Positions 21,086-39,828 of a stretch of 39,828 nt of DNA are shown here, in pieces (within the stretch, counting starts at the first letter, position 1; each line of letters starts with the position of its first letter). The DNA comes from an uncultured Candidatus Saccharibacteria bacterium. Lineage in GTDB: Bacteria > Patescibacteriota > Minisyncoccia > 2-02-FULL-40-12 > GWA2-44-9. The position numbers and the translations under genes were made by a program. The notes beneath the pieces are model-generated. The model made no database searches and was not told the DNA's origin. It saw only the letters and a program-made list of their open reading frames with translations. The stretch spans positions 1-39,828 of the forward strand of contig CAZPLD010000002.1 in assembly GCA_964587505.1 (NCBI GenBank), written 5' to 3'.

Positions 21086-22507
21086 TTAAATTTTTAACAG
21101 TTGAAACGCGGCTTTTGTTTTCCGAAAAAATTCGCCTATGGATTTAAGCTGTGAAATTTTTTTAAAAGCGTAGCTTGGCCTAAAATAGAAAGAACGGTAA
21201 GCGCTCCCTAACAAGGATAATAACTCAACTCGCGATAAGTTTTTTTCCCATACCGGGGGAATAAATCCAGGTTTAGGATCTCTGGCAAAATCACGCCAAA
21301 CATCATTGGTCAATACTCTTTCTTCTTGAGCCATTTTATACAGATCTGTCGCCGGAAAGGGAGTTGTAATTGTTATGTGAACATAATCTGGATTAATTTT
21401 TTTCATAAATTTTACGGTCTGGATAATGTCCTCCTTAGTTTCCGTAGGAGAACCCAACATAAAATAACCGGCTGTTTGAATGCCGACTTCTTTTGTTGTC
21501 TTGAAAGCTTCTTCGACCTGCTTAAGAGTAATTCCCTTCCTTAAAACATTTAATATTCTTTGCGTTCCGGCCTCGACTCCGTAATGAATTCTCTGACAAT
21601 TTGCCCGTTTAAGCGCCTCTAAAACCTCCCTGTCTACCGTATTTACTCTTGTCCTAATATCCCAAACAATTGAAAGACCACGCTTTTCTACCTCATTACA
21701 AATATCTAAAACCCGCTGGCGATCAACTCCGAAAGTGTCGTCATAAATAAAAATTTCTTGTATCCCCATTTTAGCGCATTCCTCCATTTCATCAACAACA
21801 TTTTTAGCTGAGCGGGCACGAAAAATCTTACCTAATTGCGGCCGATCACAAAACAAACACTTGAAAGGACAGCCGCGACTGGTAAACATGGTGGTTACAG
21901 GCCTGCGCGGAGAAAGAACAGAAAAATATTTCTCATAGGGCGTAAGATAACGGACAGGAAAAGGCAGATTATCAAGATTTTCTATAAAATCAGCTTGGCC
22001 GGTATTAATAATGGTTCCCCCGTCTTTAAAAACCAGACCCCTTACGTTTTTTAGTTCTTTTGGATTATCCATATTCGCCAATAGTTGTTTAATTGCCCCT
22101 TCAGCTTCGCCTAAAACCAAAAAGTCGATCTCCTCATTGCTTATTGTCTCGTTGGGGAAAATCATGACATGGGGTCCGCCCAAAATAATTTTTGTTTTTG
22201 GATTTACCTCTTTCACCACTTTCGCTGTTTTCATTACGTCAATCAACGTAAAAGTCATGGCTGTAATGCCGACAATGTCCGGTTTTCTTCTACTAACTTC
22301 TTCTTTAAGCTGGCGATAGCCTATCTCCTCAACCTGGCAATCAAGAATTTCAATATTATACGGCGTTGTCTTCTTCACGTAAGCTGCAACATACATCAAC
22401 CCCAAAGGAGGGAGGAAATCCAATCCTTCTTCCAACTCTTTGGGCTGAACACTGGCAATGGTGTTTTCAATCGGCGGATTAATTAAAAGAATTTTTTTCA
22501 TTTTCAA
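21086..22507 (-). CDS. Cobalamin-binding-domain (class B) radical SAM enzyme
   Basis: 473 aa. The N-terminal Rossmann-like KKILLINPP..DIVGITAMT..IILGGPHV resembles a B12-binding domain. The radical SAM cluster motif is SRGCPFKCLFC. Confidence 0.85.
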   Translation of the reverse strand: MKMKKILLINPPIENTIASVQPKELEEGLDFLPPLGLMYVAAYVKKTTPYNIEILDCQVEEIGYRQLKEEVSRRKPDIVGITAMTFTLIDVMKTAKVVKEVNPKTKIILGGPHVMIFPNETISNEEIDFLVLGEAEGAIKQLLANMDNPKELKNVRGLVFKDGGTIINTGQADFIENLDNLPFPVRYLTPYEKYFSVLSPRRPVTTMFTSRGCPFKCLFCDRPQLGKIFRARSAKNVVDEMEECAKMGIQEIFIYDDTFGVDRQRVLDICNEVEKRGLSIVWDIRTRVNTVDREVLEALKRANCQRIHYGVEAGTQRILNVLRKGITLKQVEEAFKTTKEVGIQTAGYFMLGSPTETKEDIIQTVKFMKKINPDYVHITITTPFPATDLYKMAQEERVLTNDVWRDFARDPKPGFIPPVWEKNLSRVELLSLLGSAYRSFYFRPSYAFKKISQLKSIGEFFRKTKAAFQLLKI

Positions 22508-23169
22508 TTTTCAAATTTTTTTACAAAATGCTTGTCTAAAAATTTGTTTAAAAATCTTTTCTTGATAAAAAGCGGGGTGAGATAATAAATTTTAACCAGA
22601 AGTCTTCTAAACATTATGTCGGATTCATGGATACTTCTAAAAAGAGGGTTGGGCTGAAACTTGTTATAACCCACCAAGTCATCAACTTTATATTTGCGGG
22701 GCATTTCTACTGGTTCTCTTTGTTTGTGGCCAAGAAGGACATAGGCAATGGGATCAAAATGGGAAGGGATGAAGAAAATTTTTCTCAACTGTTTTTTGGT
22801 CGGCAAATGGCAAAGCCAGCAGCTTCCCAGACCATAATAAGTAGCGGCCAATACCAGATTTTCAATTCCAGCAGCCGCGCTTTGGATAAAATCACAGTAT
22901 TCTGTATCCTCTGTCCGATTATTATAAAGCACTAAAATGCCAATTGGCGCGTTTTTTATAATAATGGAACCTCCGTGATCAACCAGTTTTTGTTTGATTT
23001 CCTCGCTGTCCACCACAATAAACTGCCAACCCTGGAGATTGCAGGCTGAAGGAGCCTTAACGGCTGTTTCAATTATCTTGGCAATCAAATCTTTAGCCAC
23101 CGGTTCGGGAGTGAAATTTCTGATGCTCCGCCTTGAATTAATAACATTTAAAAAATCTGTTTGGTTCAT
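22504..23169 (-). CDS. Nitroreductase-family flavoprotein with basic C-terminal extension
   Basis: INSRRSIRNF, APSACNLQGWQF, and the usual roughly 170-aa fold, followed by an extra Lys/Phe-rich tail of about 50 aa. There is a 4-nt ATGA-type overlap with the downstream rSAM gene. Confidence 0.75.
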   Translation of the reverse strand: MNQTDFLNVINSRRSIRNFTPEPVAKDLIAKIIETAVKAPSACNLQGWQFIVVDSEEIKQKLVDHGGSIIIKNAPIGILVLYNNRTEDTEYCDFIQSAAAGIENLVLAATYYGLGSCWLCHLPTKKQLRKIFFIPSHFDPIAYVLLGHKQREPVEMPRKYKVDDLVGYNKFQPNPLFRSIHESDIMFRRLLVKIYYLTPLFIKKRFLNKFLDKHFVKKFEN

Positions 23170-23219
23170 TTTTTAGTTTCTCTTCACATATATAATGACG
23201 TATTATATAAAAAATTGAT

Positions 23220-23248
23220 TTGAGAAGCAAGTGAAAATATGGTATAAT
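23220..23248 (+). promoter_or_regulatory. Sigma70-like promoter TTGAGA-17-TGgTATAAT for the UPF0104 membrane protein gene
   Basis: -35 at 23220-23225, TG at 23240-23241, -10 TATAAT at 23243-23248. The ATG is at 23271. Confidence 0.5.
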
Positions 23249-23270
23249 AGTCAAAAGATTATACAACCAA

Positions 23271-24188
23271 ATGAAACTTATTCAAAAAATTCCCATCCGA
23301 AAAATTTTAATTCTTGCGTCAGTAAGCGTTTTAATAATATTCATCATCTTCAAAACCTTAGTAAGCATGGAGGATTTTTATCGTGTCATTCGGGGTATCA
23401 GTTGGTTTTATTTTTTTCTATCTTTTGCCACCATAATTCCCGTTGTTATTATCAATGTGGCCAAGTGGTATTTAGTTCTTCGGGCCGCTGATTATAATGT
23501 TTCTTTTCAAAAAATATTTAAAATTGTCATAACCAGCACCTCTTTGGGAATATTGCCTGGCCGGCTCGGCGACTTTGCCAGAAGCTATCCTCTTCGCCAT
23601 ATTATCCCCCTGCCCCAAGCTATTGGCACTATAGTTTTAGAAAAAATCCTAGACATATCGGTTTTGCTCGCTTTTTCCGGAATAGGTCTTTTTGTTTTAG
23701 GATACCAGACATTTGCCGTTTTTGAGTTATTGCTAGTAGCGGGAGCTTTCCCCATTTTAAAAATAACAGGTTCTGCCAGCAAAAAAATACTGCCAAAGAA
23801 CCATTTAACCGATAAGCTTTATGATGCTTTCTCGGTTTTAAACAAAGTTAAGGCCAGAAAAAAAAATTTTTCGATGGCCATAATAAGTTCGTGCGCCAAC
23901 GGAATGTTGTCAATGTTCCAAATATATTGGCTTTTTAAAGCCGTGGGGGCAGTGGTTCCCTTGTTTGCCATATTTGCATTTCACCCTCTCGGAGTATTTG
24001 CTGGACTCATCCCTATAACTCTTGCGGGGGCAGGCACTCGTGACTCAATGATTATTTATTTATTCGGCGACTTTGCTGCTCCGGGACAATCTTTGGCGGT
24101 TGGTATTCTTTACGCCATGCAAAGTTATTGGATACTATCTTTGTTGGGATTACCCCTTCTTTACTACTTTTTCAAACAGAACGATTAA
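23271..24188 (+). CDS. Flippase-like membrane protein (UPF0104 / LPG_synthase_TM-type domain)
   Basis: 305 aa with about 8 TM helices. PGRLGDFARSY resembles the conserved R-x-G-E/D-x2-R loop of the MprF-type flippase domain family. Confidence 0.6.
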   Translation: MKLIQKIPIRKILILASVSVLIIFIIFKTLVSMEDFYRVIRGISWFYFFLSFATIIPVVIINVAKWYLVLRAADYNVSFQKIFKIVITSTSLGILPGRLGDFARSYPLRHIIPLPQAIGTIVLEKILDISVLLAFSGIGLFVLGYQTFAVFELLLVAGAFPILKITGSASKKILPKNHLTDKLYDAFSVLNKVKARKKNFSMAIISSCANGMLSMFQIYWLFKAVGAVVPLFAIFAFHPLGVFAGLIPITLAGAGTRDSMIIYLFGDFAAPGQSLAVGILYAMQSYWILSLLGLPLLYYFFKQND

Positions 24189-24196
24189 ATACAGGG

Positions 24197-26560
24197 CTAA
24201 AGAATTTTATACTTAAATAAAATTTTGTGGTTTCCGGCAGGAACTTGAATCGCCTGAAACACATAATTAGCTCGATAAATCTTAACTTCTTTACCGTCAA
24301 TAAAAGCTCGCCAACCAGGCAGAAAAGAATTGGAGAAAACCAGCCAGGAATTATTTTTATTCTCCACTTCTAATAAAATCTCGTCCGGCTTGTACGACTC
24401 AAGGCGGACAACCCCCCTGCCGCCCGATAAATTTTCTTGGCAATCCCCGCACTCTATTAAAGTTTCTGCCTTGAAATTTTTTATTTCCAAAAGTTTCCGC
24501 ATCACGGCATCATCTGATAGATTTTCATTTAAATATAAGGTAGATTTAGCAAGGTAAATTTTGGGCAGAACATCAGGATTTTCATATACATAAAGAGGTA
24601 TCTGGGTATCGATAACGCTTGAGTCCAATCTCTTGATAAACGGCTTGCCCAACGGCAGGGATGAGAGAATATATTTAACATTCATCATTGAAAACAGTTT
24701 TATTTTGGATTCAAATAACTTTCTTTTTTCATCCAAGGTCAACTTTTGAGTCGCAAACTGACTGTTAAAATCGGAAAAGAATTCCTGTCTCTTGGTTAAA
24801 AAAGCCTCGTGGCCATTTAAAGTTTCTATATTGTAATACATGAACTCATCCGTACGGAAAGTGGCTATTTCAAATTTTAAAAGTTTTTCCGGATTTTTGT
24901 ATTCCAACCCCATTTTTTTATATGACTCAATTCCGATATTAAATGATAACGCCCGATATTGATCGTCTTTGTGGTTTATTAAAAATTGGATTACCGGCGT
25001 CGGATTCAATACAGAAGCAGGGACAAAGGAATAATACCGATGCCAGATGAAAAAAGATGAAAAATAAACAAGAACAACGGCTAAAACTGAAAATGCCGCA
25101 GTTGAAACTTTATTTTTTAACAGCAAGAAAATAATCAGCCCGGTTGATACAAGCGTAATTACGGCCAGCCAAATCTCAACATTTGAAAAAGAAAATTGAT
25201 AAAACCACGAATTTAAAAGCTCTTTTACTTTGCCTATGTAATAAGCCGGCTCGCGCTGAAGGGTGTGGGCGTAGCCAAAACGCATAAAAACTTTAAATCC
25301 GACCCTAATTAAGGTCTCAAATGCAAAATAATATATTATATTTATCGCAACAACTGCCAAACCAAAAACAATCAGAAACTTTTTATAAAAACCGGCAATT
25401 CTGGAAAAAAACTTTAATCCCCGACTTTCTCTTAAGGCGTCCAAACCAAAACCAGCCAAAATAGCCATCGCAAATGTGGTTAAAAAAAGAAATTTACCGG
25501 GTCCGCGAAAAGAATTAAAAACCGGAACTTTGGTCAATATGTAAAAGACCGGGGAATATATTATGGCCGTACCCAAAGTTAGAACCGTCATCCATTGGAA
25601 AAATCTGACAAAATAACTTTCTCTATTGACTTTCCAAGCCAAAACAATAAGAAGCAGAGGCAAAATACCAAGATAAAAATGAGTAAATTCAGTGTTTATA
25701 AAAGGCAATATGATAAACGGAGAAACAAAGTGAACCAAGTCAAAAACATTGTAATAGTCCTTATTAAATGAATCCTGGTAGGACAGCCCGCCGTTTCTCC
25801 AGCTTAAACTGTAAATTGCATAGTCGGCTTTTATAACCGGCAGAACGATAACCACGCTCAATAAAATAATGGCCGCACAGATAATGGTATTTTTATATTT
25901 TAGAAGTTGAAATCTGTTCTTTTGGAAGTCCAAAAACGCAGCAAATACTACCAGGGCCGTTGCCAGATAAAGCGTGGTTTGAGTCAGACCAAAGACCCAA
26001 TTCGGAGCAAGGACCAGTGCGGCCAGAATGGCATACCAGAATTTGTGCCCGCCTTCGCTGATCTTAATTGTCAAAAAAAATAAAAACGGAACCCAGGCAA
26101 GAAAAAGGCCAATAGTTTCAAGGCCGCCCCACTGAATGTTCCATTGATTAAAAATCCAAACAAACGAAGCAAAGACAGCAGATAAGGCGCTGATTTTTAA
26201 CTTCCTGGACAACAGATAGAACCCGTACCATTGGCCCGCAAAACTCAACGCGATAACCCAATAGTAAGCGCTTATCGGCTTGAGAAATTTATAGAAAAAA
26301 AGTGTGATTGGATGGAGCATATCCATTTGGGAAAGATAGGGGGCAACACCGCTGAAATAGAGCGGGTTGATACGCCAGCTCCCGCTTCTTAAGGCCTCGC
26401 CAAACCAAAAATGCAGTGGCAGATCTTCGGCTGTACTATGAGCAACACCAAAAGCCAACTTACCGCCAAAAAGGACGGGGTAGAAAAAAACAGTTACGGC
26501 TACAAAAGGAAGCCACCACAAAACATAAGGAATCCTGAATATTTTACCAAACCTATTCAT
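24197..26560 (-). CDS. Very large polytopic membrane protein with C-terminal beta-rich domain; GT-C-like, YfhO-like in size and architecture
   Basis: 787 aa. TM helices cover about 520 aa, followed by a roughly 260-aa soluble C-terminus. An acidic ED pair lies in loop 1 (HSTAEDLPLHFWFGE). It overlaps the upstream Zn-ribbon methyltransferase by 4 nt. Confidence 0.5.
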   Translation of the reverse strand: MNRFGKIFRIPYVLWWLPFVAVTVFFYPVLFGGKLAFGVAHSTAEDLPLHFWFGEALRSGSWRINPLYFSGVAPYLSQMDMLHPITLFFYKFLKPISAYYWVIALSFAGQWYGFYLLSRKLKISALSAVFASFVWIFNQWNIQWGGLETIGLFLAWVPFLFFLTIKISEGGHKFWYAILAALVLAPNWVFGLTQTTLYLATALVVFAAFLDFQKNRFQLLKYKNTIICAAIILLSVVIVLPVIKADYAIYSLSWRNGGLSYQDSFNKDYYNVFDLVHFVSPFIILPFINTEFTHFYLGILPLLLIVLAWKVNRESYFVRFFQWMTVLTLGTAIIYSPVFYILTKVPVFNSFRGPGKFLFLTTFAMAILAGFGLDALRESRGLKFFSRIAGFYKKFLIVFGLAVVAINIIYYFAFETLIRVGFKVFMRFGYAHTLQREPAYYIGKVKELLNSWFYQFSFSNVEIWLAVITLVSTGLIIFLLLKNKVSTAAFSVLAVVLVYFSSFFIWHRYYSFVPASVLNPTPVIQFLINHKDDQYRALSFNIGIESYKKMGLEYKNPEKLLKFEIATFRTDEFMYYNIETLNGHEAFLTKRQEFFSDFNSQFATQKLTLDEKRKLFESKIKLFSMMNVKYILSSLPLGKPFIKRLDSSVIDTQIPLYVYENPDVLPKIYLAKSTLYLNENLSDDAVMRKLLEIKNFKAETLIECGDCQENLSGGRGVVRLESYKPDEILLEVENKNNSWLVFSNSFLPGWRAFIDGKEVKIYRANYVFQAIQVPAGNHKILFKYKIL

Positions 26561-27516
26561 TCTTTACGCCTGGCAATAATTAAAAATTGGCCATCAATGC
26601 CCGGCATTATCACATGCGACAACCCTAGGGTTTTAATTAAAGCCAAAAATAACTTTTTTAGATTAAAGGCGGAAGTTCTTAAGGGTTTATTTTCCGTTAA
26701 GCGACCGAAATAATCAAAAAACCTGCCAAAAAAATCCTCAACTGTAAAATAAAATACGTTAGGGAATGTTTTAGGTATGACATTCAATATCTCAAAACCA
26801 TTTTTTTCCAAAAGGTTGCTTAGCGTTTTGGCGCTAAAATAATATAAATGCTCCGGTGGCCGGATTGTCCATCGTCCTATCATCGAATCCATATCGACCG
26901 TCGAAGCGGCCAATATACCCCCTGGTTTTAAAAGACGCATAGCTTCACTGACCTCATCTTGAGGGTTTTGAAAATGCTCTATCGTTCCAAGCATCATTGC
27001 GACATCAAAAAAGTTATTTTCATAATTCATATTTTTCAAATAGCCCTGTCTCGCGTTGACGATATTCAGGGTCTCGCGGGCGTATTTAACCGCTTCTCCA
27101 TTTAAGTCATTGCCCCAAATATCAAAGCCGGCCCGCCTAGCCACATCTAACGAGAAGCCGTAAGCACACCCGATATCTAAAAGTTTTCCCCTATTACAAA
27201 ACTTTCTTATCGCGTTTATTACGACTTGGCCGTTTTTAGTAATGGCATCTTTGTCGGCCATGTAATCAGCATAGCCCAATGTTTTATCACCTCTTAAAAA
27301 ATAATCCGGCGACTCATAAAATTTGTTAAAGTCGTCTTTGTCGGGTTGAGGATTAACATAGATTAGATCATCATTCAGACATCGCACTAAATTAAAACCG
27401 TTATTAATGGCGAAAACCTTCGTCCTATCCTGATTGCAAATTATACAATTGACTTGCTTCATTTGGGGTTTTATATAACCGTCATTCATTCTACACATTA
27501 TGTTGCTACCAGGCAA
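26557..27516 (-). CDS. Class I SAM-dependent methyltransferase with N-terminal zinc-ribbon-like segment
   Basis: Motif I LLDIGCAYGF, then FDVAMMLGTIEHF and LKPGGILAASTV. The C-terminal FLIIARRKE matches the FLIIARKV tail of the paralogue at 3650-4531. The start may lie at a downstream ATG (for example MKQVNCIICNQD), because the ORF-track start is a TTG. Confidence 0.8.
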   Translation of the reverse strand: MPGSNIMCRMNDGYIKPQMKQVNCIICNQDRTKVFAINNGFNLVRCLNDDLIYVNPQPDKDDFNKFYESPDYFLRGDKTLGYADYMADKDAITKNGQVVINAIRKFCNRGKLLDIGCAYGFSLDVARRAGFDIWGNDLNGEAVKYARETLNIVNARQGYLKNMNYENNFFDVAMMLGTIEHFQNPQDEVSEAMRLLKPGGILAASTVDMDSMIGRWTIRPPEHLYYFSAKTLSNLLEKNGFEILNVIPKTFPNVFYFTVEDFFGRFFDYFGRLTENKPLRTSAFNLKKLFLALIKTLGLSHVIMPGIDGQFLIIARRKE

Positions 27517-27551: not shown

Positions 27552-29216
27552 TTAATCCCTGGGACGAGGCGCGGGGTATGTGACGGTTTTTTTCATTTCA
27601 GGCATTGCCCTTAACACTTCAATCTTGAAACCCTTAATAAAACTCTTTAGGCCCGTTAGAGCATTGCCAAATTTAATGGGATAAATATAGTATTTTAGAG
27701 TAATCACTTTAATGATGTAATAAATAGCCAAATACAGTCTGTTCGGTTCAAACCTTTTTGTTAAAACATTGAGTATAAATTCAACCAAAAAGTTGCAAGC
27801 CCAATTATATAACCGGCCCAACAATCTGATCGGGCCACAAAATATTGACAGGTGATTTTGACTCAAAAAATCGTCAAGCTTTTGCATTTTTCGCGAAAAC
27901 CATGTTGCCATATTCCCGATAAAAAGCGCCAACCCGCCAAGATATAAAATATTTTTCTGCTGGTCTTTTTCTTCTTCAGTAAAACAGCTAAGCGGCGAAC
28001 GCTCCATCAACGACTCGCTCATTTTATCAGGGTCCATCTTAAAATATCCTTTATCTTCGCAATATTTCCCGATTTCCGTTCCAGGATAGGGCATGAGAAT
28101 GGAAAAGCTTGAAAATTTAACTCCGGAAGCGATGTCCAGACGCACTGCGTCTTTATCGTCTTCTATGGTAGCGTCAGGAACGCCCAAGATCATGTTGTTA
28201 AAGATACCAATGCCATAGTGCTCCGCCATTCTAAATTTGTCGATAACGTCTTGATTGGTAAATTTTTTCTTAATGACCCTTTTGCGAACTTCTATATTGG
28301 CGTGGTCTACGGCAACATTCAACGATACACAGCCGGCTTCTTTAAGAAGTTTGAGCATGTCCTCGGTTATTGAATCCACTCTGACAAGCGCGTTAAACGG
28401 TATTCCTACCTTCCTAGGATAAATTTTAACAAACTCCTGGAGCCATCTGTCCACATGGAGAACAAAAAGGTCGTCTTCAAATTTAATAAATTCAACCGGC
28501 CATTTTGATTTTACTTGGAGAATTTCTTCACATACCCGTTCCGGCGAATGCCTTCGCTCATATTTGCCGGACTGCCTGCCTGTTTTTGTATCAAGCACTT
28601 GAATAACACCCATGGCTTTTTCTTCTCTGTACATTTTCTTTAGCACCGGCTCAAAGCAATAAGTGCACGGAAACGGACAACCTCGGGAAGTAATAAATGT
28701 TTTTAACGGGAAACCGCCAATAGGAGTATTCGCAAAAAGCAGGTCTCGGTCGGGAAAGGGCAATGTATCCAAGTCACCAATTAAGTCCCGCTTCTTATTG
28801 ACCCCGCCGGTCTTGGTACCGATATTTAAGATATCTTGTATGTCTTTCCCGGCTTCAAGCCGGTTCAAGAGTTCCGCAAAAGCCCCTTCGCCTTCCCCCA
28901 CGGCGATTGCGTCAATGGGTTGATAGTCAATGCATTGAGAATAATATGTGGGATGCGAACCGCCCATTATTGTAAAAACGTGCGGAAATCTTTCCCTGAT
29001 CTGCCTATTTAAGTTGAAATATCCTTGATGCTCTCCGGTAACAGCGCTGTAAGCAATGACTCCCGGCTTATAATCAGCAATCTTCTGAAACACATCGCCC
29101 CCTTCAATAACCGCAAGGTCCATTTCATGGCCCTCGTTTTTGCCGGCAGCAGACAAGTAACAAATTCCCATCGGATCAATAAAGTCGCTTCTTTGGATAA
29201 GCCACAAAACCCTCAT
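27552..29216 (-). CDS. Cobalamin-binding-domain (class B) radical SAM enzyme
   Basis: 554 aa. N-terminal MRVLWLI..FIDPMGICYLSAA..VIAYSAVTG..TIMGGSHP. Cluster motif SRGCPFPCTYC. The C-terminal region is hydrophobic or amphipathic. Confidence 0.85.
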   Translation of the reverse strand: MRVLWLIQRSDFIDPMGICYLSAAGKNEGHEMDLAVIEGGDVFQKIADYKPGVIAYSAVTGEHQGYFNLNRQIRERFPHVFTIMGGSHPTYYSQCIDYQPIDAIAVGEGEGAFAELLNRLEAGKDIQDILNIGTKTGGVNKKRDLIGDLDTLPFPDRDLLFANTPIGGFPLKTFITSRGCPFPCTYCFEPVLKKMYREEKAMGVIQVLDTKTGRQSGKYERRHSPERVCEEILQVKSKWPVEFIKFEDDLFVLHVDRWLQEFVKIYPRKVGIPFNALVRVDSITEDMLKLLKEAGCVSLNVAVDHANIEVRKRVIKKKFTNQDVIDKFRMAEHYGIGIFNNMILGVPDATIEDDKDAVRLDIASGVKFSSFSILMPYPGTEIGKYCEDKGYFKMDPDKMSESLMERSPLSCFTEEEKDQQKNILYLGGLALFIGNMATWFSRKMQKLDDFLSQNHLSIFCGPIRLLGRLYNWACNFLVEFILNVLTKRFEPNRLYLAIYYIIKVITLKYYIYPIKFGNALTGLKSFIKGFKIEVLRAMPEMKKTVTYPAPRPRD

Positions 29217-29329: not shown

Positions 29330-30094
29330 CTATGCTTTTTTTACTAAGAGACCAGGCCGAAACCAAACCTGCCAGAACAATCTTAGAAGCGTCTTTCCGA
29401 TTCCGATAACATTATCGAGCTTGAAAGCGGCTCCGCTTGTTTTACCTTGCTTAAGAATTATAGGAACTTCTTTATAAGTTAAGTCGGGATGAGATTTCTT
29501 AGCTGATACAAATGCCTCGACATTATATGCAAAACTATCATTTTTCAAATTTAATGATTGCAATAACTTCCTAGGATAAATTGAAGCACCGTTGTAATAA
29601 GTCAAATGGAGACCATAAAGCAAATTGCACAATGCAGTAAATATTCGCGAAAGGACTCTTCTAAACAACGTTCTCGATTCCATGTTGGCCGTATACGACA
29701 AAACAACTTCCGCTTCACCCACATGAGACAAGACCGACATAACATTTTCCGTACTGAACTCGCTATCACAAAAAATACAAGTTATATATTCCTTGGTTGC
29801 CATTTCAACGCCTTGCCGGTATTTGAAACCGACATTGATGTAATCTCGATTATGAACGGTTTTGATTTTTGGATTTTTCAACTCTAACGCCCTGGCAGTA
29901 ACGGGCGTCTCATCATTAATCCCGTTCTCATCGGCGTTTGTGATAATAAAAATCTCGTAATCTGCAAGTCCCAATTTTTCTAAAGCACTGGTTACCACCG
30001 AAATAAACGGTTCCAAAATTTTGGCCTTTTTATAAGCCGGGACAATAACGGTAATTGAAGGCATTATCTTTGTTTCCATAGATTCATTAGACAC
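29330..30094 (-). CDS. GT2-family glycosyltransferase (paralogue A)
   Basis: ITVIVPAYKK.., ..IFIITNADENG, GFKYRQG, and the DXD-equivalent FCDSEF. It shares YYNG and D(S/N)FAY blocks with the ORF at 32081-32818. The start is ambiguous (GTG 30094, ATG 30079 or ATG 30064). An AAGGAG lies just upstream. Confidence 0.75.
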   Translation of the reverse strand: MSNESMETKIMPSITVIVPAYKKAKILEPFISVVTSALEKLGLADYEIFIITNADENGINDETPVTARALELKNPKIKTVHNRDYINVGFKYRQGVEMATKEYITCIFCDSEFSTENVMSVLSHVGEAEVVLSYTANMESRTLFRRVLSRIFTALCNLLYGLHLTYYNGASIYPRKLLQSLNLKNDSFAYNVEAFVSAKKSHPDLTYKEVPIILKQGKTSGAAFKLDNVIGIGKTLLRLFWQVWFRPGLLVKKA

Positions 30095-30163: not shown

Positions 30164-30184
30164 AAAACGCCTTGTGGAGGCGTT
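30160..30184 (-). terminator. Intrinsic terminator after the rSAM-kinase pair
   Basis: The minus strand reads AACGCCT-CCACA-AGGCGTT followed by TTTTGAC. The stem spans 30166-30184 and overlaps the TAA stop of the kinase gene. Confidence 0.6.
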
Positions 30185-30722: not shown

Positions 30723-30730
30723 GGCAGGCC

Positions 30731-31948
30731 TCAAATGAAATTCACGTTCTTGGGAATAGGTAAACGAGTTAATTGGATTAACCGGCTTTCCAATTCTTGC
30801 GGTTCGGAATTTTTCAAATCCTCAAGAACTTCGTTAACATTGTGCATCCGGCAGTTTTTCCGGCAAACAGATATGTCAAAATTTTTCATAAATTCTATGT
30901 GTTGTCTGCGTTTCGCTCCCCACCAGATTTGCTCAAAGGTCTGCTCCTTGATATTGCCAAGATCAAAATCTGAATTGCTATTGTGGGCGGCGCAACTGAT
31001 AATCACGCCGTCAGATTGCAAATAGGCCCACGACATCGGCGTAGCCAGACACTTTTCATATTTACGCTCTACTGCCTGATAATCAAGAAACGCCTTCCAG
31101 CGAAATACGACCTTGAAACTGTCGTCCTCGAGTGTTCTTAATTCGACTTCAATATCGTCAAGTTTTTTTTCAAATCCACTATAAGACATCTGACCATATC
31201 TTTTCTCTGTTCCTAAGCTGTATGGATTCTGACCGTAGGGTTTAATGACAACATGGTCAAGACCAATCTCTTTGGCCTTGCGGGCAAGAAGAGGCGCCTC
31301 GCACCAATTGGCTGGCACCGAATTACCTTTCACATCCAAAGTATCACTAACAAGTAAGACCGTCTGACAGCCAATTTCGCATTTATAGTTACGCTGGGCC
31401 CTTAATTCAACTGCCTTAGCAAGATTGCGCCAAACCTTATCCCAATGTTCCGGAAGAGTTTGATGAACCAGCGAATAAGTTTCTTTCGTGCCGGCATTGA
31501 TGCTGGCTTTTATCCAAGAGAGGTGTTCAAGGGACTGGTCAGAAAATTTTTCGGTTAGTCCTGTAGCGTTAGTGGTCAAAGCGGACTCAATTCCATTCTC
31601 AAACGTAAATCGTATAATTTTCTGAAGTTCCGGATGAAGGGTCGGCTCGCCTTCCCCAGCAAACATCAAACTTTTGACGCCAAGTCCGTTTAAGTCCCTT
31701 TCCCTAAGTTGTCTCAATTCCGTTACAAATTTGATCAAAAGCTCGGACGACAAGCTGCGATTCGGGTAACCCATAACTTCTTTGGCGCAGAAAGTACAGC
31801 GATGATTGCAAAGACCTATCGGCGAAACCTCAATATAAATAGGCGGGGTCGAGAATGAATCTTCCCGCCATCGTCTTATCCAATCGGGGTGATAAACAAT
31901 CTTTTGACTGTCGAATTGGGAGTCAAATTTCTCTTTGTTTTTAAGCAT
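30731..31948 (-). CDS. Radical SAM enzyme with C-terminal SPASM/twitch-like auxiliary Cys domain
   Basis: 405 aa. Cluster motif CNHRCTFC, the GGE-like MFAGEGEPTLHP, and a C-terminal C-x20-C..GNI..F.QIW..CRKNC pattern resembling partial SPASM (twitch) domains. Confidence 0.8.
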   Translation of the reverse strand: MLKNKEKFDSQFDSQKIVYHPDWIRRWREDSFSTPPIYIEVSPIGLCNHRCTFCAKEVMGYPNRSLSSELLIKFVTELRQLRERDLNGLGVKSLMFAGEGEPTLHPELQKIIRFTFENGIESALTTNATGLTEKFSDQSLEHLSWIKASINAGTKETYSLVHQTLPEHWDKVWRNLAKAVELRAQRNYKCEIGCQTVLLVSDTLDVKGNSVPANWCEAPLLARKAKEIGLDHVVIKPYGQNPYSLGTEKRYGQMSYSGFEKKLDDIEVELRTLEDDSFKVVFRWKAFLDYQAVERKYEKCLATPMSWAYLQSDGVIISCAAHNSNSDFDLGNIKEQTFEQIWWGAKRRQHIEFMKNFDISVCRKNCRMHNVNEVLEDLKNSEPQELESRLIQLTRLPIPKNVNFI

Positions 31949-32080: not shown

Positions 32081-32818
32081 ATGGGCCACACGGTCAGCAT
32101 CGTCATGCCGGCCCACAGAGAGCTGGGCAATCTGGAAGGAGCAGTAAATTATGTATCTGACGAAATCGAGCTTCTTTCCAAAGCAGGAAAAATCAATGAT
32201 TGGGAAATTATAATCGTTGACTCATTAGAGAAAGACGGCTCCACAGACGGAACGCCGCAACTTGCCGACCTGCTTGCAGAAGTAAACGGTCGCATTAAGG
32301 TTATTCACAACAATGGTTACGTAAATCTGGGACACAAATACAAACAAGGCCTGTCAACGGCCAAATTTGATTATTTCATGATGGTGCCAGGTAAAAACAC
32401 TCTCCACGGAGCTTCGCTTAAAAACCTTTTAGACAACATACCCGAAAGCGGGATAGTTATCGGTTATCAAGCAGACATGAGCCGGCGGCCGTTTAAGCGT
32501 CGACTAATTTCAAAATCATTCACGATTTTTATGAATTTTGTCTTCAGATTGAATTTGAAATATTATAACGGCACAACTGTCATTCCGACTCATATTCTTC
32601 GCGAAATAGAACCCAACACCGATAACTTTGCCTACATGGCTGAAATATTAGTCATTCTCCTTAAAAGATACCGGCTTCCCCATATTGAAGTTCCTTTTTA
32701 TACCAAGGGGCGAAGAAATTATGGAAACACTAAAGCTACCGAATGGGAAAATGTGGTCAGTATAGCCAAGACAATAATGAGATTGCTTAAAGAAGTAGAA
32801 TTAAGAAAAAATTTATAA
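32081..32818 (+). CDS. GT2-family glycosyltransferase-like protein (paralogue B) lacking the DXD acidic pair
   Basis: VSIVMPAHRE, IIIVDSLEKDGSTDGTP, GHKYKQG, YYNGTTVIP and DNFAY align with paralogue A. The DXD position reads VPGKN (see findings). Confidence 0.7.
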   Translation: MGHTVSIVMPAHRELGNLEGAVNYVSDEIELLSKAGKINDWEIIIVDSLEKDGSTDGTPQLADLLAEVNGRIKVIHNNGYVNLGHKYKQGLSTAKFDYFMMVPGKNTLHGASLKNLLDNIPESGIVIGYQADMSRRPFKRRLISKSFTIFMNFVFRLNLKYYNGTTVIPTHILREIEPNTDNFAYMAEILVILLKRYRLPHIEVPFYTKGRRNYGNTKATEWENVVSIAKTIMRLLKEVELRKNL

Positions 32819-32923: not shown

Positions 32924-34714
32924 TTAGACAGGGTCAATGATCATATTCTCTAAAAATTCTTCTTCCGGCAAAAGCGGGTACATTCTTTCAATCGGTGAAC
33001 TGATATAGCCCTTTGATTTATCTAATAATGACATCGGGATCAGTAACTGATCCGAGGGCATCATTATCTCACACAAAACGGGGCCAGTCATGTTTAATGT
33101 TGTTTGTATGGCTTCGGAAAGGTCTTTTTGAATGTCTACGCCTAATGAAGGGATGCCGTAGGCATCAGCCACCTTTTTAAAATTAGGCGTGCTATAACCG
33201 CTTTCCGGGCTTGAACCAACAAGATGGCCGTCAAAAAATGTTTCTTGAGTATGTCTAATAGTCAAATATGACCTACTGTTTAGAATAAAGATTTTGATCG
33301 GTATCTGATAGTGGGCCACTGTTTGCAGCTCTTGGATATTCATCTGAAAACCGCCATCGCCGTAAATACCGATAATCCTTGAAAGATCTTTTCTGCCAAA
33401 CCAGGCGCCGATAGTAGCCGGCAATCCAAATCCCATGGAAGCAAACCCGGAATTGGTAAACAATCTTTGCTCTTTTCTAACTTTGAAGGCCTGCATGGTA
33501 CAGGTAAAACTCGTCCCCATATCAGTAAGGACCACATCGTTGTCATTGAGTTGAGAACAGATAGTTTTAATGAAAACATAGGAATTGACGCCCTGCTCCA
33601 AAAATTCGTATTCTTTCAGGACAACTGGATATTTGGCCCTCCATTCTTGACACCTTTTTCTCCATCCGTCTATATCCGAAGAAAAAGAATTGTTAAGATA
33701 AGTTAGTAGATATTCTATAAACATTCCTGCATCTGCCCTAACTGGCAAATCTATTTTAATAAGCCCTTTATTTAATTCGTGGTCGTCAATATCAACTACA
33801 ATTTTTTTTGCCGCACGGGCATACATCTTTGGATTAATGCCAACTTGCCGCGTATCCATTCTTGAACCAATACTCAATATTAAATCTGAATTTGCTATGG
33901 CAAAATTTGCTCCCCGCTGGCCTTTTGTTCCGGCAGAACCGACATACAGCGGATGATCATGATTTATAAGATCTATTCCATTCCAAGTGGTGACTACCGG
34001 AAATTGAAGTTTTTCAACCAATTCCAGAAATTTATCTTGAGCTCCGGCAATCCTGATGCCGTGGCCAGCAATCAAGATCGGCCGTTGAGCCATTTTAAGC
34101 ATAGCAACAACATTGGGTATAAGTTTTTGGGAATCTTCATCCAAGCAGGTCTCTTGATAAGAATCCTGACAAAAAGATATGAGTTCGGCCGGTTCAATTT
34201 GAGCGCGCTGAATATCGGCCGGGATATCTATCCAAACCGGTCCGGGTCGGCCATTTTTTGCTCTAAAAACTGCCTCTTCGAGATGATGCCTGATTAGTTC
34301 TGGTTTCTTTACCATCACTGCAAATTTTGTGACTGATCTGACCAGTTCCACAATATTAATTTGCTGAACGCCTAGCTGCCTAATGGTTTTGCCATCTGTA
34401 GTAAGTTCTAGGGGAACTTGCCCGGATATGAAAATACATGGTACAGAATCACACCATGCTCCGCACACGCCGGTTATAGCATTAGTTCCGCCAGGACCAG
34501 AACTTACCAGAGCCACTCCGACTTTCCCGCTTGATCGAGCATATCCTTCAGCAGCCATAGCCGCCGCTTGTTCATGCTGGGTACATATATATTTCAAGCG
34601 GGAACTTTTGCCCAACGAATCAGCAAGATGGGAATTGGCACCACCAACAAGCATAAATACGGTGTCAGCGGCATAGTCAGCAATAAACTGAAATAGATAA
34701 TCGGATAGTTTCAT
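32924..34714 (-). CDS. Thiamine diphosphate-dependent enzyme, acetolactate synthase large-subunit-like (three-domain Pyr/middle/PP architecture)
   Basis: 596 aa. The N-terminal Pyr domain contains VFMLVGGANSHL..HEQAAAMAAEGYAR..SGPGGTN. The ThDP-binding motif is IYGDGGFQMNIQELQT..ILNS (GDG-x24-27-N type). Confidence 0.85.
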   Translation of the reverse strand: MKLSDYLFQFIADYAADTVFMLVGGANSHLADSLGKSSRLKYICTQHEQAAAMAAEGYARSSGKVGVALVSSGPGGTNAITGVCGAWCDSVPCIFISGQVPLELTTDGKTIRQLGVQQINIVELVRSVTKFAVMVKKPELIRHHLEEAVFRAKNGRPGPVWIDIPADIQRAQIEPAELISFCQDSYQETCLDEDSQKLIPNVVAMLKMAQRPILIAGHGIRIAGAQDKFLELVEKLQFPVVTTWNGIDLINHDHPLYVGSAGTKGQRGANFAIANSDLILSIGSRMDTRQVGINPKMYARAAKKIVVDIDDHELNKGLIKIDLPVRADAGMFIEYLLTYLNNSFSSDIDGWRKRCQEWRAKYPVVLKEYEFLEQGVNSYVFIKTICSQLNDNDVVLTDMGTSFTCTMQAFKVRKEQRLFTNSGFASMGFGLPATIGAWFGRKDLSRIIGIYGDGGFQMNIQELQTVAHYQIPIKIFILNSRSYLTIRHTQETFFDGHLVGSSPESGYSTPNFKKVADAYGIPSLGVDIQKDLSEAIQTTLNMTGPVLCEIMMPSDQLLIPMSLLDKSKGYISSPIERMYPLLPEEEFLENMIIDPV

Positions 34715-36823: not shown

Positions 36824-38233
36824 ATGAAGATATTGCTAACAAACAGTCCTTTTCAGTATTACATGACCACGTCATTTTTTCACCCCGACTGGGGAGCTCT
36901 CAATTTACCTCAATTAGCTGCTATGGTCCCGCGTCATGAAGTAAGGATATTAGATAATTGGCATCACTGGTTCAAACAAGAAAGGGTTCTAAGGACAATA
37001 AGAGAATTTGAACCACAAGTGTTGGCCGTAAGCAATTCCACAGCAGCCGACACAGACAGAGTTTTAGAAATGGCACGCCAAGTAAAACATAGTTATCCTA
37101 ACATTATCATGATTATCGGCGGCCAAGCGGCAACCGTCCGATACAAGGACTGCCTTAATTCCGGTTTTAGTGTTGTGGTAAGAGGCGAAGGTGAATATAC
37201 TTTTCAGGAAGTAATTGACCGAATCAATCAGGGTTCTAACGATTTCTCTGATATCCAAGGGGTGGGTTATTTAAAAGAAGGAGAGTTCGTAAACAGCCCC
37301 GGTCGAAAGTTCGTTAAAAATCTGGACCAGCTACCTTTCCCAAAGTGGGAATTAATGCCCAGATTTAAATCAAATTTTTTCCGGGGAATATTCGCATCGG
37401 TCACCGAATCGTCGCGAGGTTGTCCTTACACATGCGACTTCTGTGCCGTCCAATCTTTCTGGCAAAGAAGTTACCGAAAGAAATCAAACGAAAGAATTAT
37501 TGCTGAATTAGAAATACTTAAATGGCAACTTGGTTACGACCAGGTTTATTTCATAGATGATTCGTTTGCTCTTAACGTCAAAGAATATACTGAACTATTC
37601 GAAACAATGATAAGAAAAGGGGTCATAGTCAAAGGTTTCTCTCAAATTCGCCCTGACACTGTAGCCGATAATCCGGACATGATAAAACTAGCAGCACGAG
37701 CCGGTTTTTGGGGATTCTTGGTTGGGTTTGATTCTTACGATGAAAAAGCCTTGTCGGAAGTACATAAAACCGGTGGAACGGAAATAAATATAAAGGCAGC
37801 TGAAGTATTAAGAAGAAATGGAATCGGTATTTTCGGGGTTCATATGTATGGAATGCCCGGAACCAACCCTCATAATTTTAACAAAACATTTAACTTGGGG
37901 ATGGAAAATTCTGACACCTTTCGAATGTCTCGTTTTTCCCTTATACCCGGAACGCCGCTTTACAACGAGCTTACCGAAAAAAATATGGTAGAAGCGAGAA
38001 CCGGAAAATATGTCCCTCATAGCCATAAGATCAAATCGGAGAAACGTAAATCAAAAATAGAAAACGCAATGTACATCGCCTATGAATTACGAAGTTTGCT
38101 TGGATTAAAAGCTATAAAAAAATATGTCAAATCTGAAGGTATGGCCAGGATTCTTCAAACTCGGGCTTACTTGGTTGCCATGAGGTATGTTTTTTACCTG
38201 ATCTGCAGAAAAGTTGGGATTGAAATCTTATAA
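36824..38233 (+). CDS. Cobalamin-binding-domain (class B) radical SAM enzyme
   Basis: 469 aa. MKILLTNSP..VLAVSNSTAADT..MIIGGQAAT, with the cluster motif SRGCPYTCDFC. Confidence 0.85.
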   Translation: MKILLTNSPFQYYMTTSFFHPDWGALNLPQLAAMVPRHEVRILDNWHHWFKQERVLRTIREFEPQVLAVSNSTAADTDRVLEMARQVKHSYPNIIMIIGGQAATVRYKDCLNSGFSVVVRGEGEYTFQEVIDRINQGSNDFSDIQGVGYLKEGEFVNSPGRKFVKNLDQLPFPKWELMPRFKSNFFRGIFASVTESSRGCPYTCDFCAVQSFWQRSYRKKSNERIIAELEILKWQLGYDQVYFIDDSFALNVKEYTELFETMIRKGVIVKGFSQIRPDTVADNPDMIKLAARAGFWGFLVGFDSYDEKALSEVHKTGGTEINIKAAEVLRRNGIGIFGVHMYGMPGTNPHNFNKTFNLGMENSDTFRMSRFSLIPGTPLYNELTEKNMVEARTGKYVPHSHKIKSEKRKSKIENAMYIAYELRSLLGLKAIKKYVKSEGMARILQTRAYLVAMRYVFYLICRKVGIEIL

Positions 38234-38255
38234 ATTTAACGGAACGAAAAACACG

Positions 38256-38278
38256 AAGGAGCAAATTGCTCCTTTTTT
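38256..38278 (+). terminator. Intrinsic terminator after the rSAM gene at 36824-38233
   Basis: AAGGAGC-AAATT-GCTCCTT followed by TTTTGT. Confidence 0.7.
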
Positions 38279-38307
38279 GTCCGACTATTTTGACAACAAA
38301 GCGTTTA

Positions 38308-38334
38308 ATCAAAAGACCGTCTATTTAAAGACGG
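38308..38334 (-). terminator. Candidate intrinsic terminator after the Rieske oxygenase pair
   Basis: The minus strand reads CCGTCT-TTAAAT-AGACGG followed by TCTTTTG. The 6-bp stem has the stop codon in its loop. Confidence 0.4.
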
Positions 38335-39193: not shown

Positions 39194-39268
39194 TCCTTAT
39201 TTTAAAAAAACGTATTATTAAAATACACAATTACAGCCCTTGAATCAATGGGTTTGACCAAAGAGGAA

Positions 39269-39634
39269 TTATTTTAGAAAATACAACAAGAGAAACGCTC
39301 CGGCATAATTGCAAACTATATCAAAAGCGCTGTCGGCCCAGCTGAATTCTACTTTTTCAAGACGAAGTTTTATTTTTATATATTTAGACCAGCTTGGGAT
39401 GTGAGCCGCGGCATATTCAAGCGATTCCCAAATTAAAGTCACGACGGCTAATCCGATTAAAACCGCGGTTCGAGAATCGGTGAGACCTGCGAAAAACATG
39501 GCCACAAAAAACCCGCCCAAAACGTGCTCTACCTGAAAAAACCAGTAATGCCTAAACCCAAAACCATAATACATGCCGACTGTTAGATCCAACAAGAAGA
39601 TGACCGGAAGAATGATTAGGGAAGCAATTAACAT
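39269..39634 (-). CDS. Small integral membrane protein, unknown function
   Basis: 121 aa with four predicted hydrophobic helices. No recognisable motif. Confidence 0.5.
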   Translation of the reverse strand: MLIASLIILPVIFLLDLTVGMYYGFGFRHYWFFQVEHVLGGFFVAMFFAGLTDSRTAVLIGLAVVTLIWESLEYAAAHIPSWSKYIKIKLRLEKVEFSWADSAFDIVCNYAGAFLLLYFLK

Positions 39635-39663
39635 TAATTTAGTATATCAGAATATGTTTTAAT

Positions 39664-39692
39664 TTGCTAAATCAAAAAAAACAATGTATGGT
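39664..39692 (+). promoter_or_regulatory. Possible promoter TTGCTA-17-TATGGT for the partial rSAM gene
   Basis: -35 at 39664-39669 and -10 at 39687-39692. A GGGAGG RBS (39729-39734) lies 6 nt before ATG 39741. Confidence 0.3.
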
Positions 39693-39740
39693 AGGACAAT
39701 AATTGCACCTTAAAAAGAGGTTTCAAATGGGAGGTCCCGA

Positions 39741-39828
39741 ATGAAAATTCTGTTTGTCCCCAGAACCGTTGAGTATATTGACCCGATGAATATAGAGCTT
39801 ATGTCGGCTCTCGCCAGACGAGAGAGGC
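39741..39828 (+). CDS. 5' end of a further cobalamin-type radical SAM gene (3'-truncated by the window edge)
   Basis: MKILFVPRTVEYIDPMNIELMSALARRER aligns with the N-terminus MRVLWLIQRSDFIDPMGICYLSAAGKNE of the rSAM at 27552-29216. A strong GGGAGG RBS is present. It is absent from the ORF track because no stop codon falls inside the window. Confidence 0.55.
   Translation, partial: MKILFVPRTVEYIDPMNIELMSALARRER

Follow-up and report, generated by a model that had tools for sequence, protein, structure and literature searches.

What are five radical S-adenosylmethionine (radical SAM) genes doing in a single glycan locus, and on what might their products act? This question is raised by contig CAZPLD010000002.1, assigned to an uncultured Candidatus Saccharibacteria bacterium. 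The window analysed here is this whole contig (39,828 bp, GC content ~0.38), and nearly all of its open reading frames (ORFs) are glycan-biosynthesis genes as judged by Pfam. We refer to the radical SAM genes as A (21086..22507, minus strand), B (27552..29216, minus strand), C (30731..31948, minus strand), D (36824..38233, plus strand) and E (39741..39828, plus strand; the first 29 codons, ending at the contig end). An earlier reading made from the DNA letters only (the sequence-only reading) had taken them for one system that makes a carbon-modified envelope glycan. Our analysis favours, with modest confidence in the explanation as a whole, a mosaic envelope-glycan island of a Patescibacteria-type bacterium, in which the five genes fall into at least two separable conserved cassettes and in which radical chemistry would modify sugars destined for an envelope glycan, some of them lipid-linked and others nucleotide-linked.

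The translations of the four complete genes contain the CxxxCxxC cluster motifs that the sequence-only reading had picked out, namely SRGCPFKCLFC in A, SRGCPFPCTYC in B, CNHRCTFC in C and SRGCPYTCDFC in D. Domains were called at Pfam gathering cut-offs and families at the curated NCBIfam cut-offs. A, B and D harbour a Radical_SAM domain (94.6, 59.8 and 73.8 bits, respectively) together with a B12-binding domain (79.8, 51.1 and 64.4 bits), and C harbours a Radical_SAM domain (43.2 bits) together with a SPASM domain (32.6 bits, cut-off 21.5), all above the cut-offs. Cobalamin binding by A, B and D is predicted from these matches to PF02310. Four B12-type enzymes had been claimed; three are confirmed by their domains, and the fourth, E, can only be inferred from an orthologue in the related locus L090. 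The four complete proteins are 21-26% identical to each other, which indicates four distinct families and not recent duplicates. All lack hydrophobic membrane segments and are therefore soluble. None of the radical SAM proteins reached any curated NCBIfam equivalog cut-off, so that none belongs to a housekeeping family, which supports the sequence-only reading on this point. In the protein match lists their named relatives are mostly from Patescibacteria, Parcubacteria and Yanofskybacteria.

A belongs to a highly conserved family of 470 amino acids (aa) with 60-90% identity over the top matches. Its few named members come mostly from Patescibacteria-type candidate phyla, in addition to Nanoarchaeota, Coatesbacteria and one deltaproteobacterium. 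At least 454 metagenome stretches encode a relative of A, which is thus not special to the window. The true start of A is likely the ATG at 22501. The three cluster cysteines are invariant in the family alignment. Three further cysteines (C242, C268 and C302 in the numbering of a 471-aa protein) are invariant in 21 family sequences.

The surroundings of A were compared in the best 80 of these stretches, where neighbouring ORFs were labelled by similarity to the annotated proteins of the window. Around A, and likewise around B and C, the conserved context consists of glycan genes, which agrees with the setting assumed by the sequence-only reading. A glycosyltransferase family 2 (GT2) gene of the type found at 17618 is positioned one or two genes before A on the same strand in 56 of the 70 loci with upstream sequence. 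The gene between the two varies and encodes a protein of ~253 aa (11 loci), a nitroreductase-family protein or an AsnB-like amidotransferase; the one representative of the ~253-aa protein that was scanned has the Pfam domains Polysacc_deac_1 and DUF3473 and is of the ArnD type. A class I methyltransferase gene usually follows A. Within six genes of A, an LPG_synthase_TM protein is encoded in 30 of the 80 loci, a 524-aa membrane protein in 31 and a priming phosphoglycosyl transferase in 26. This set, in which a GtrB/ArnC-like GT2 and A are joined by a class I methyltransferase and by one flippase-like and one GT-C-like membrane protein, is called cassette 1 here. The precomputed annotation of one locus (L004) independently gives the same order. 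The strong linkage of A to this GT2 had escaped the sequence-only reading, as had a small ferredoxin gene at 20865-21080.

In the window, the GT2 of cassette 1 (17618..18523, plus strand; Pfam Glycos_transf_2) has its best PDB matches in GtrB sll0501 (4.7e-16), ArnC and DPMS, and in NCBIfam it comes closest to AglJ, PpgS, PgfS and ArnC without reaching any of the cut-offs. Together with a hydrophobic C-terminal region (about residues 236-297), these matches predict an enzyme of the polyprenyl-phosphate-sugar synthase type. The 524-aa polytopic protein (16016..17590, minus strand) has multiple hydrophobic segments and a weak match to PMT_2 (E 0.015); PMT_2 was matched by 13 of 27 members of its family, mostly weakly and at best with 3e-6. 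It is probably the GT-C-type transferase of the cassette, judging from these domain matches. The flippase-like membrane protein (23271..24188, plus strand) matches LPG_synthase_TM with 104.5 bits in Pfam and TIGR00374 with 83.9 bits (cut-off 43.2). Wzx-type genes are present in some A loci. Orthologues of the 236-aa class I methyltransferase encoded at 13327..14037 (plus strand; Pfam Methyltransf_11 and Methyltransf_23) adjoin a nitroreductase or GT2 gene inside the A cassette of L001, L010 and L011, with 48-65% identity.

A itself stands in a tightly packed block on one strand, located between the flippase-like gene and the GT2 gene. The block consists of a nitroreductase-family flavoprotein (22504..23169, minus strand; Pfam Nitroreductase) that overlaps the start of A, A, a 71-aa single-cluster ferredoxin (20865..21080, minus strand; Pfam Fer4_15, 2.9e-15, and Fer4_13), NifS (19695-20864, minus strand; Pfam Aminotran_5), NifU (19226-19693, minus strand; Pfam NifU_N) and an FNR-like (ferredoxin-NADP-reductase-like) flavoprotein (18520..19239, minus strand; Pfam FAD_binding_6 and NAD_binding_1). 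L011 holds the complete block in the same order and L010 holds it up to an FNR-like gene truncated at the contig end. In L001, A, a ferredoxin gene and the run from NifS to the FNR-like gene are present with other genes intervening, and a 65-aa Fer4 gene lies immediately upstream of NifS. L010 and L011 have unannotated ORFs of 72-73 aa between A and NifS, and L013 has the FNR-like gene with a small ORF and lacks NifS and NifU. The ferredoxin and the FNR-like protein are likely candidates for plausible electron donors to the [4Fe-4S] cluster of A. The two could also make up an electron chain from NAD(P)H to the radical SAM enzyme. NifS and NifU were considered as members of the system and rejected: just 3 of the 80 loci, all of close relatives, have them beside A, and they probably serve housekeeping. 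A nitroreductase-family protein is encoded at most six genes from A in 12 of the 80 loci. The window copy has BluB as its best NCBIfam match (74.5 bits, cut-off 150) and is maybe a flavin reductase or a link to B12, BluB being the enzyme that makes dimethylbenzimidazole, the lower ligand of cobalamin.

The matches of A to characterised enzymes point in several directions. Among the NCBIfam models, HpnJ (TIGR03471) scored best with 243.7 bits over nearly the full length (cut-off 577.6), followed by BchE (TIGR02026; 219.7 bits, cut-off 481); the models of the ladderane-lipid B12-type radical SAM enzyme and HpnR were also among the best matches, below the cut-off. The closest PDB sequence match is AprD4 (1e-27, 21% identity), of which the NCBIfam model covers only the radical SAM half of A (residues 175-396). 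AprD4 is also the best fold match (TM-score 0.75/0.78) of the predicted model, which has a mean predicted confidence (pLDDT) of 83, before TsrM, MgmA, TokK and OxsB. Neither the Pfam and NCBIfam scores nor the fold search separate a methylase, a rearranging enzyme and a dehydratase for A. According to a 2026 review, non-methylating B12-type radical SAM enzymes lack features that distinguish them from methylases (PMC12931638). The step from a cobalamin-type domain to methylation, one of the options of the sequence-only reading, does not follow, because the best families of A, HpnJ and BchE, are non-methylases and both A and B are closest to AprD4 in the PDB. We regard C-methylation by A as a tentative possibility, a rearrangement of the HpnJ/Cds (calditol synthase) type as possible but unlikely, another reaction as less probable and a dehydration of the AprD4 type as the least probable of the four. 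A more specific idea, for which we see only a slim chance, is that the A family performs an HpnJ/calditol-synthase-type radical skeletal rearrangement on a polyprenyl-phosphate-linked hexosamine, for example a ring contraction to a carbocycle. If this were true, many uncultivated bacteria would decorate their envelopes with carbasugar-like or carbon-rearranged units by a three-component glycosylation equipped with a radical SAM enzyme. Together with the second cassette, which combines DesII-like, YerE-like and B12-type radical SAM proteins, it would then form a previously unknown radical branch of envelope glycan biosynthesis.

The second cassette is centred on C. Four C-terminal cysteines (C300, C319, C362 and C366) are conserved in 24 relatives of C, which suggests one auxiliary cluster of the twitch type. 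In NCBIfam, the best match of C is a tungsten-cofactor oxidoreductase maturase (57 bits vs a cut-off of 380), with viperin at 54 bits vs 180. The predicted model (pLDDT 91.5) is most similar in fold to DesII (TM-score 0.62, E 5e-15, ~15% identity), then to the SPASM maturases SuiB and SkfB of RiPPs (peptides that are ribosomally synthesised and modified post-translationally) and to anSME, and then to BlsE and viperin. DesII, BlsE and viperin act on nucleotide-linked sugars or nucleotides. The likeness to DesII is one of fold only, as C scored 24.7 bits against the NCBIfam DesII model (TIGR04426; cut-off 450). One 548-aa relative of C (P0458) has a cytidylyltransferase-like domain (PF01467) fused N-terminally to the radical SAM/SPASM part, a fusion that fits a nucleotide-activated substrate.

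Ten loci were compared for this cassette, namely the window, four found via relatives of B and five via relatives of C; they come from Patescibacteria and Omnitrophica. A C-like radical SAM/SPASM gene, a thiamine enzyme gene and a gene for a small soluble GT2 (230-260 aa) occur together in all ten. A B12-type radical SAM gene is found in eight of them, and an HldE-like kinase/nucleotidyltransferase gene and a GT-C gene in six each; GmhA-like SIS genes and epimerase genes often lie beside the HldE-like gene. The thiamine enzymes of these loci are of two kinds, YerE-like and E1/transketolase-like. Keto-sugars receive a two-carbon branch from YerE-type enzymes, and some natural-product sugars receive such branches from E1-like enzymes. 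The window enzyme (32924..34714, minus strand; 596 aa, three TPP-enzyme domains) is a YerE-like thiamine-diphosphate carboligase. Its best PDB match is JanthE (8RPH; E 1e-125, 424 bits, full length), while the best acetolactate synthase reached 295 bits. Against the acetolactate synthase model TIGR00118 it scored 422 bits, short of the cut-off of 538, and it stayed below every acetolactate synthase cut-off. JanthE has been described as YerE-like (PMC12188165), and the match to it makes a C-branched sugar a plausible product.

Two small soluble GT2 genes flank C in the window. The 254-aa protein (29330..30094, minus strand; Pfam Glycos_transf_2, 31.4 bits) has no hydrophobic segment and is 32% identical to its 245-aa paralogue (32081..32818, plus strand, divergent from C; 44.7 bits). 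The latter had no PDB match by sequence, and is 81% identical to a protein encoded at the same position in L090 and 67% to one in L091. A P-loop kinase gene of the AAA_33 type (30183..30734, minus strand; Pfam AAA_33) overlaps the end of C and remains beside C in L090 and L091. In L090 the kinase and the small GT2, encoded by separate adjoining genes in the window, form one 428-aa fusion (11209-12495 of that locus), suggesting that both act on the same substrate. Beyond the thiamine enzyme gene lie Pfam-assigned genes for a HAD phosphatase (34788-35471, minus strand), a cupin-like protein (35423-36154, minus strand) and a DJ-1/PfpI protein (36151-36690, minus strand); the same trio adjoins a C-like radical SAM gene in L007 in the same order, with 38%, 51% and 80% identity.

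B, which has a C-terminal extension, occurs with this cassette as well: B-like genes lie within cassette 2 of L007, L008, L090, L095 and L096. Its best NCBIfam match is HpnJ (88 bits vs 578), with BchE at 80.7 bits (vs 481), and its best PDB sequence match is AprD4. The top matches of B, down to ~46% identity, are 514-587 aa long and the few named ones are from Patescibacteria; relatives of ~480 aa occur in Omnitrophica and Elusimicrobia. Downstream of B lie genes for a 319-aa class I methyltransferase (26557..27516, minus strand; Pfam Methyltransf_23) and a 787-aa YfhO-like GT-C protein with many hydrophobic segments (24197..26560, minus strand; Pfam YfhO 37.1 bits, cut-off 28.5). Both have counterparts after B in L090, where the methyltransferase gene is 78% identical and in the same position and the GT-C gene, following B and the methyltransferase, is 74% identical.

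D is closest to BchE (173.7 bits vs 481) and HpnR (136 vs 650) in NCBIfam, where HpnJ scored 125.8 bits (vs 577.6), and to TokK in the PDB. By sequence similarity its family is rare: among 1.84 billion cluster representatives, only three relatives were at least 39% identical, counting full-length matches of more than 400 aa. QCMT/MgmA, CysS and OxsB were also among the PDB matches of the radical SAM proteins, and no tetraether-synthase entry appeared among those of A, B and D. In L007, an ORF at 4636-4740 opens with 34 codons ~86% identical to the N-terminus of D and continues into a thiamine-enzyme N-domain; the junction lies at common residues (AAM|AAEGY) and the thiamine enzyme of that locus is split in two. 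This chimera looks like a recombination scar or a pseudogene, and such a junction would reflect module shuffling in these loci.

The fifth N-terminus, E, had been reported as aligning with B. It is real, since it is identical in 26 of 27 positions to the start of a 529-aa gene with B12-binding and Radical_SAM domains in L090; it is also 70% identical to a 553-aa B12-type radical SAM protein in L091. The likeness to B, on the other hand, is weak (8 of 19 aligned positions, including the common IDPM motif). Beyond the E orthologue, L090 encodes GmhA-like, HldE-like, two epimerase/dehydratase, YdjC and PanB-like (ketopantoate hydroxymethyltransferase family) proteins (1-6113 and 6271-7194). Judging from these genes, the window locus probably extends past 39828.

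The relation between the two cassettes can be seen from the related loci. L090, a close relative of the window, retains the B/C cassette and lacks the A block, whereas L011 retains the A block, so that this block is a movable module. The single system proposed by the sequence-only reading is for this reason better described as a mosaic of at least two separable cassettes. Clustering of several radical SAM genes is itself recurrent: 33 of the 80 A-orthologue loci have at least two such genes and 13 have at least four.

The domains, the conservation of the families and the linkage of the genes are observed directly, and from them we infer the substrates and reactions of the favoured explanation. 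In cassette 1, the GT2 would make a polyprenyl-phosphate-linked monosaccharide, which the soluble enzyme A and the class I methyltransferase would modify at the cytoplasmic face. At this modification step an additional enzyme may act in other loci, be it an ArnD-like deacetylase, a flavoprotein of the nitroreductase family or an amidotransferase similar to AsnB. The LPG_synthase_TM flippase-like protein would then take the product across the membrane, and a GT-C-type enzyme, either the PMT_2-like 524-aa protein or the YfhO-like protein, would transfer the sugar to a surface polymer. Such a scheme would follow the Arn pathway and three-component glycosylation in its logic and extend them by a radical step. 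For radical reactions on lipid-linked sugars there is a genetic precedent in HpnJ and calditol synthase, which are linked to the ring contraction of a lipid-linked hexose (PMC13459092). In cassette 2, a sugar would be activated as a nucleotide sugar, by HldE- and GmhA-like proteins in the relatives and possibly by the AAA_33 kinase and the HAD phosphatase in the window. C might convert it to a keto-sugar by radical deamination or dehydration, and the YerE-like enzyme would add a carbon branch from a 2-oxo acid, a step for which E1/transketolase-like proteins may substitute elsewhere. The B12-type enzymes B and E, and perhaps D, could make further changes at the carbon level, before the small soluble GT2s and the YfhO-like GT-C protein would pass the sugar on.

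Several points weigh against this explanation. We know of no product, substrate or activity for any member of either cassette, and to our knowledge the LPG_synthase_TM family is not established as a polyprenyl-sugar flippase. The 524-aa family, used as a profile, had no meaningful PDB match by sequence, so its GT-C assignment rests on the weak PMT_2 matches. In the window, A and the GT2 gene at 17618 are ~2.5 kb apart and on opposite strands. The co-occurrence counts for cassette 2 carry a selection bias, as its loci were found via homologues of B or C, and the transketolase-like genes in some of them could just supply sedoheptulose phosphate without any branch being added. As regards the use of cobalamin, AprD4 has a similar N-terminal fold and binds no cobalamin (PMC12931638), and the Rfam and tRNA scans of the window both came back empty, with no cobalamin riboswitch.

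Two other explanations accept the glycan or membrane setting and differ in the substrate. In one of them, all B12-type enzymes would be cobalamin-dependent C-methyltransferases on soluble nucleotide sugars, similar to GenK and GenD1, yielding a multiply C-methylated glycan without any lipid-linked step. C-methyltransferases occur in every functionally characterised group of B12-type radical SAM enzymes (PMC12931638), the PF02310 scores of A, B and D are solid, the enzymes have no membrane segments, and a TylC3-type sugar C-methyltransferase is also encoded in the locus (9472-10728). Yet the families nearest to A are the non-methylases HpnJ and BchE and its closest structure is AprD4, most A loci already have a class I methyltransferase beside A, and the genes tied to A are those of a GT2 of the polyprenyl-phosphate-sugar synthase type and, in 11 loci, the ArnD-type gene, of which one representative was scanned, and not those of nucleotide-sugar enzymes. 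We therefore consider this explanation unlikely, although it deserves consideration. Somewhat less probable still is that the enzymes modify membrane lipids, either glycolipid head groups or hydrocarbon chains of host-derived lipids, as do HpnJ, HpnR, calditol synthase, GrsA/B and the ladderane enzymes. The sequence-only reading had treated membrane lipids as an equal option, which we do not favour. The matches of A to HpnJ, HpnR and the ladderane-lipid enzyme would fit, but all fall well short of the family cut-offs. The flippase domain of the lipid-modifying enzyme MprF is of the LPG_synthase_TM family, and radical head-group chemistry on lipid-linked hexoses has its genetic precedent (PMC13459092); the conserved partners are nevertheless a priming phosphoglycosyl transferase, Wzx, glycosyltransferase family 4 (GT4) and GT-C proteins, neither the window nor the annotated relatives showed genes for making hopanoids, isoprenoid ethers or fatty acids, and tetraether synthases are missing from the PDB matches of A, B and D. 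This alternative overlaps with the favoured explanation, as a sugar is lipid-linked in a glycolipid head group just as it is on polyprenyl phosphate.

The remaining alternatives take the position in a glycan locus to be accidental, and we give both very little credence. C and the AAA_33 kinase, whose gene overlaps the end of C, could work together against viruses, in the manner of prokaryotic viperins, by producing a nucleotide that terminates chains: PADLOC pVip models, including 'viperins associated with kinases', match C at 58 and 54 bits, and the NCBIfam prokaryotic viperin model (NF038283) matches residues 46-165 at 53.8 bits. The pVip match, however, does not reach beyond the generic radical SAM core (residues 46-197), and the scores fall far short of the cut-off of 180. 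C has an additional conserved cysteine-rich C-terminal domain and DesII as its best fold match, the kinase is fused to a GT2 in L090, and in each of the nine other contexts C-like genes are accompanied by thiamine enzymes, small GT2s and sugar-activation genes. A defence reading was likewise rejected, given the weak pVip match of C and the fact that the one PADLOC model matched by A and D is a candidate model. Equally improbable is that the radical SAM proteins mature RiPPs, or serve housekeeping in the way of BchE, HemN or MiaB, and have no functional tie to the glycan island around them. B12-type and SPASM radical SAM enzymes are commonly RiPP maturases, ApyD and other RiPP methylase models match partially, and the fold search with C has SuiB and SkfB among its matches. 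Against this, none of the proteins reached an equivalog cut-off, we saw neither a precursor peptide nor a protease or exporter among the genes annotated in the window and in the annotated relatives, and the glycan neighbourhood is conserved across loci with GC contents from 0.26 to 0.62.

The other genes of the window complete the picture of a glycan locus. It opens with a priming phosphoglycosyl transferase (16-1278), which is separated from the remaining glycan locus by a pyruvoyl-dependent arginine decarboxylase gene (1383-1925, plus strand). A large unannotated membrane protein (1946), a class I methyltransferase (3650), a GT2 (4501), a Wzx-like flippase candidate (5212) and another class I methyltransferase (6546) follow. 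The TylC3-type sugar C-methyltransferase, a class I enzyme with a Methyltransf_14 domain, is encoded at 9472-10728 on the strand opposite to a short-chain dehydrogenase/reductase (SDR) ORF at 10614-11525 (plus strand). The latter overlaps its start by ~115 bp, and as its Pfam match sets in only at residue 70, the SDR gene probably starts further downstream than listed. With a small cupin and an FrhB-like protein, these two genes would constitute a second, conventional route to C-branched or unusual sugars at 9472-13321. Two GT4 genes and an AsnB-like amidotransferase gene were also identified by Pfam. The interleaving of the radical SAM genes with GT2, GT4 and GT-C glycosyltransferases, flippase candidates and five class I methyltransferases (3650, 6546, 9472, 13327 and 26557), as noted in the sequence-only reading, is confirmed. 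Between D and E lie a Rieske-domain ORF (38867-39193, minus strand; Pfam Rieske, 52.4 bits) and an ORF with a weak KshA_C-like catalytic domain (38325-38870, minus strand; E 7e-4). This split Rieske-type oxygenase (38325-39193) is only a possible member of the system. An O2-dependent oxygenase adjoining the O2-sensitive enzyme D is an odd pairing.

Antibiotic pathways provide known cases of radical SAM chemistry on sugars (GenK, AprD4, DesII and BtrN), and two lipid head groups add genetic ones (HpnJ and calditol synthase). Tailoring of this kind and Arn-type or three-component glycan decoration are both known already; here they are combined in a recurrent arrangement that is not unique to the window. 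Shown here is a 470-aa family of B12-domain radical SAM proteins tied to a polyprenyl-phosphate-sugar-type GT2 in most metagenome loci examined, as well as a second cassette joining a DesII-like radical SAM enzyme, branch-forming thiamine enzymes and further B12-type radical SAM proteins. Of the earlier proposal, the glycan context is supported and a C-branched sugar is plausible. A characterised counterpart, which the sequence-only reading did not know of either, was not found in our literature search of incomplete coverage. The same search gave no account of radical SAM chemistry in the building of bacterial envelope glycans, and none that ties radical SAM enzymes to glycosylation of the three-component or undecaprenyl-phosphate-sugar kind or to glycan loci of Patescibacteria, which, given its coverage, is absence of evidence only. 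For enzymologists, the cassettes offer compact, well-defined and testable gene sets that represent large unexplored groups of B12-type radical SAM enzymes. For the Patescibacteria, which depend on contact with a host, they point to chemically unusual surface sugars, and they raise the question of the cofactor source in bacteria thought to lack cobalamin synthesis.

When cassette 1 is compared to the Arn pathway (ArnC, ArnD, ArnE/F and ArnT) and to three-component systems (a GtrB/CsbB-type GT2, a flippase and a GT-C such as YfhO), it shares with both the predicted type of the GT2 and the grouping, within a single cassette, of a flippase candidate with a probable GT-C-type membrane transferase, and with Arn also an ArnD-type deacetylase for tailoring in 11 loci (one representative scanned). 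It differs from both in including a B12-domain radical SAM enzyme and a class I methyltransferase, and in that its flippase candidate is of the LPG_synthase_TM family and not GtrA, ArnE/F or Wzx. Our literature search returned no radical SAM enzyme described in Arn or three-component systems. In the HpnI/HpnK/HpnJ pathway to the hopanoid cyclitol ether and in the Cds pathway, the radical SAM enzyme acts on a lipid-attached hexose or hexosamine after a GT2 and a deacetylase (PMC13459092). The GT2, the deacetylase and A of cassette 1 would mirror HpnI, HpnK and HpnJ in function, and only A shows sequence kinship, which is weak. Unlike in the HpnI/HpnK/HpnJ pathway, the deacetylase of cassette 1 is of the NodB type and not of the YdjC type, the presumed carrier is polyprenyl phosphate, and the window GT2 is GtrB/ArnC-like, without HpnI among its listed NCBIfam matches. 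Hopanoid-pathway families were absent from the window ORFs of at least 100 aa (Pfam) and from the precomputed Pfam annotation of the annotated related loci.

AprD4, the radical SAM 1,2-diol dehydratase of apramycin biosynthesis, is the nearest solved structure to A and acts on a sugar ring. It binds no cobalamin, in contrast to the significant PF02310 matches of A, B and D, and no AprD3-like reductase partner is conserved with A. C resembles DesII (TDP-4-amino-4,6-dideoxyglucose ammonia-lyase), BlsE and BtrN in combining a radical SAM core with a cysteine-rich C-terminal domain and in having sugar-activation genes among its neighbours, whereas the desosamine pathway surrounds DesII with partners other than the thiamine enzyme and small GT2s that accompany C. 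The closest known counterparts of the protein encoded at 32924 are YerE and JanthE, branch-forming carboligases of branched-chain sugars such as yersiniose; its match to JanthE covers the full length and lies well above those to the acetolactate synthases. For JanthE itself, the description (PMC12188165) states no physiological substrate. Unlike YerE and JanthE, the window enzyme sits together with radical SAM enzymes and, in its relatives, with heptose-type activation genes.

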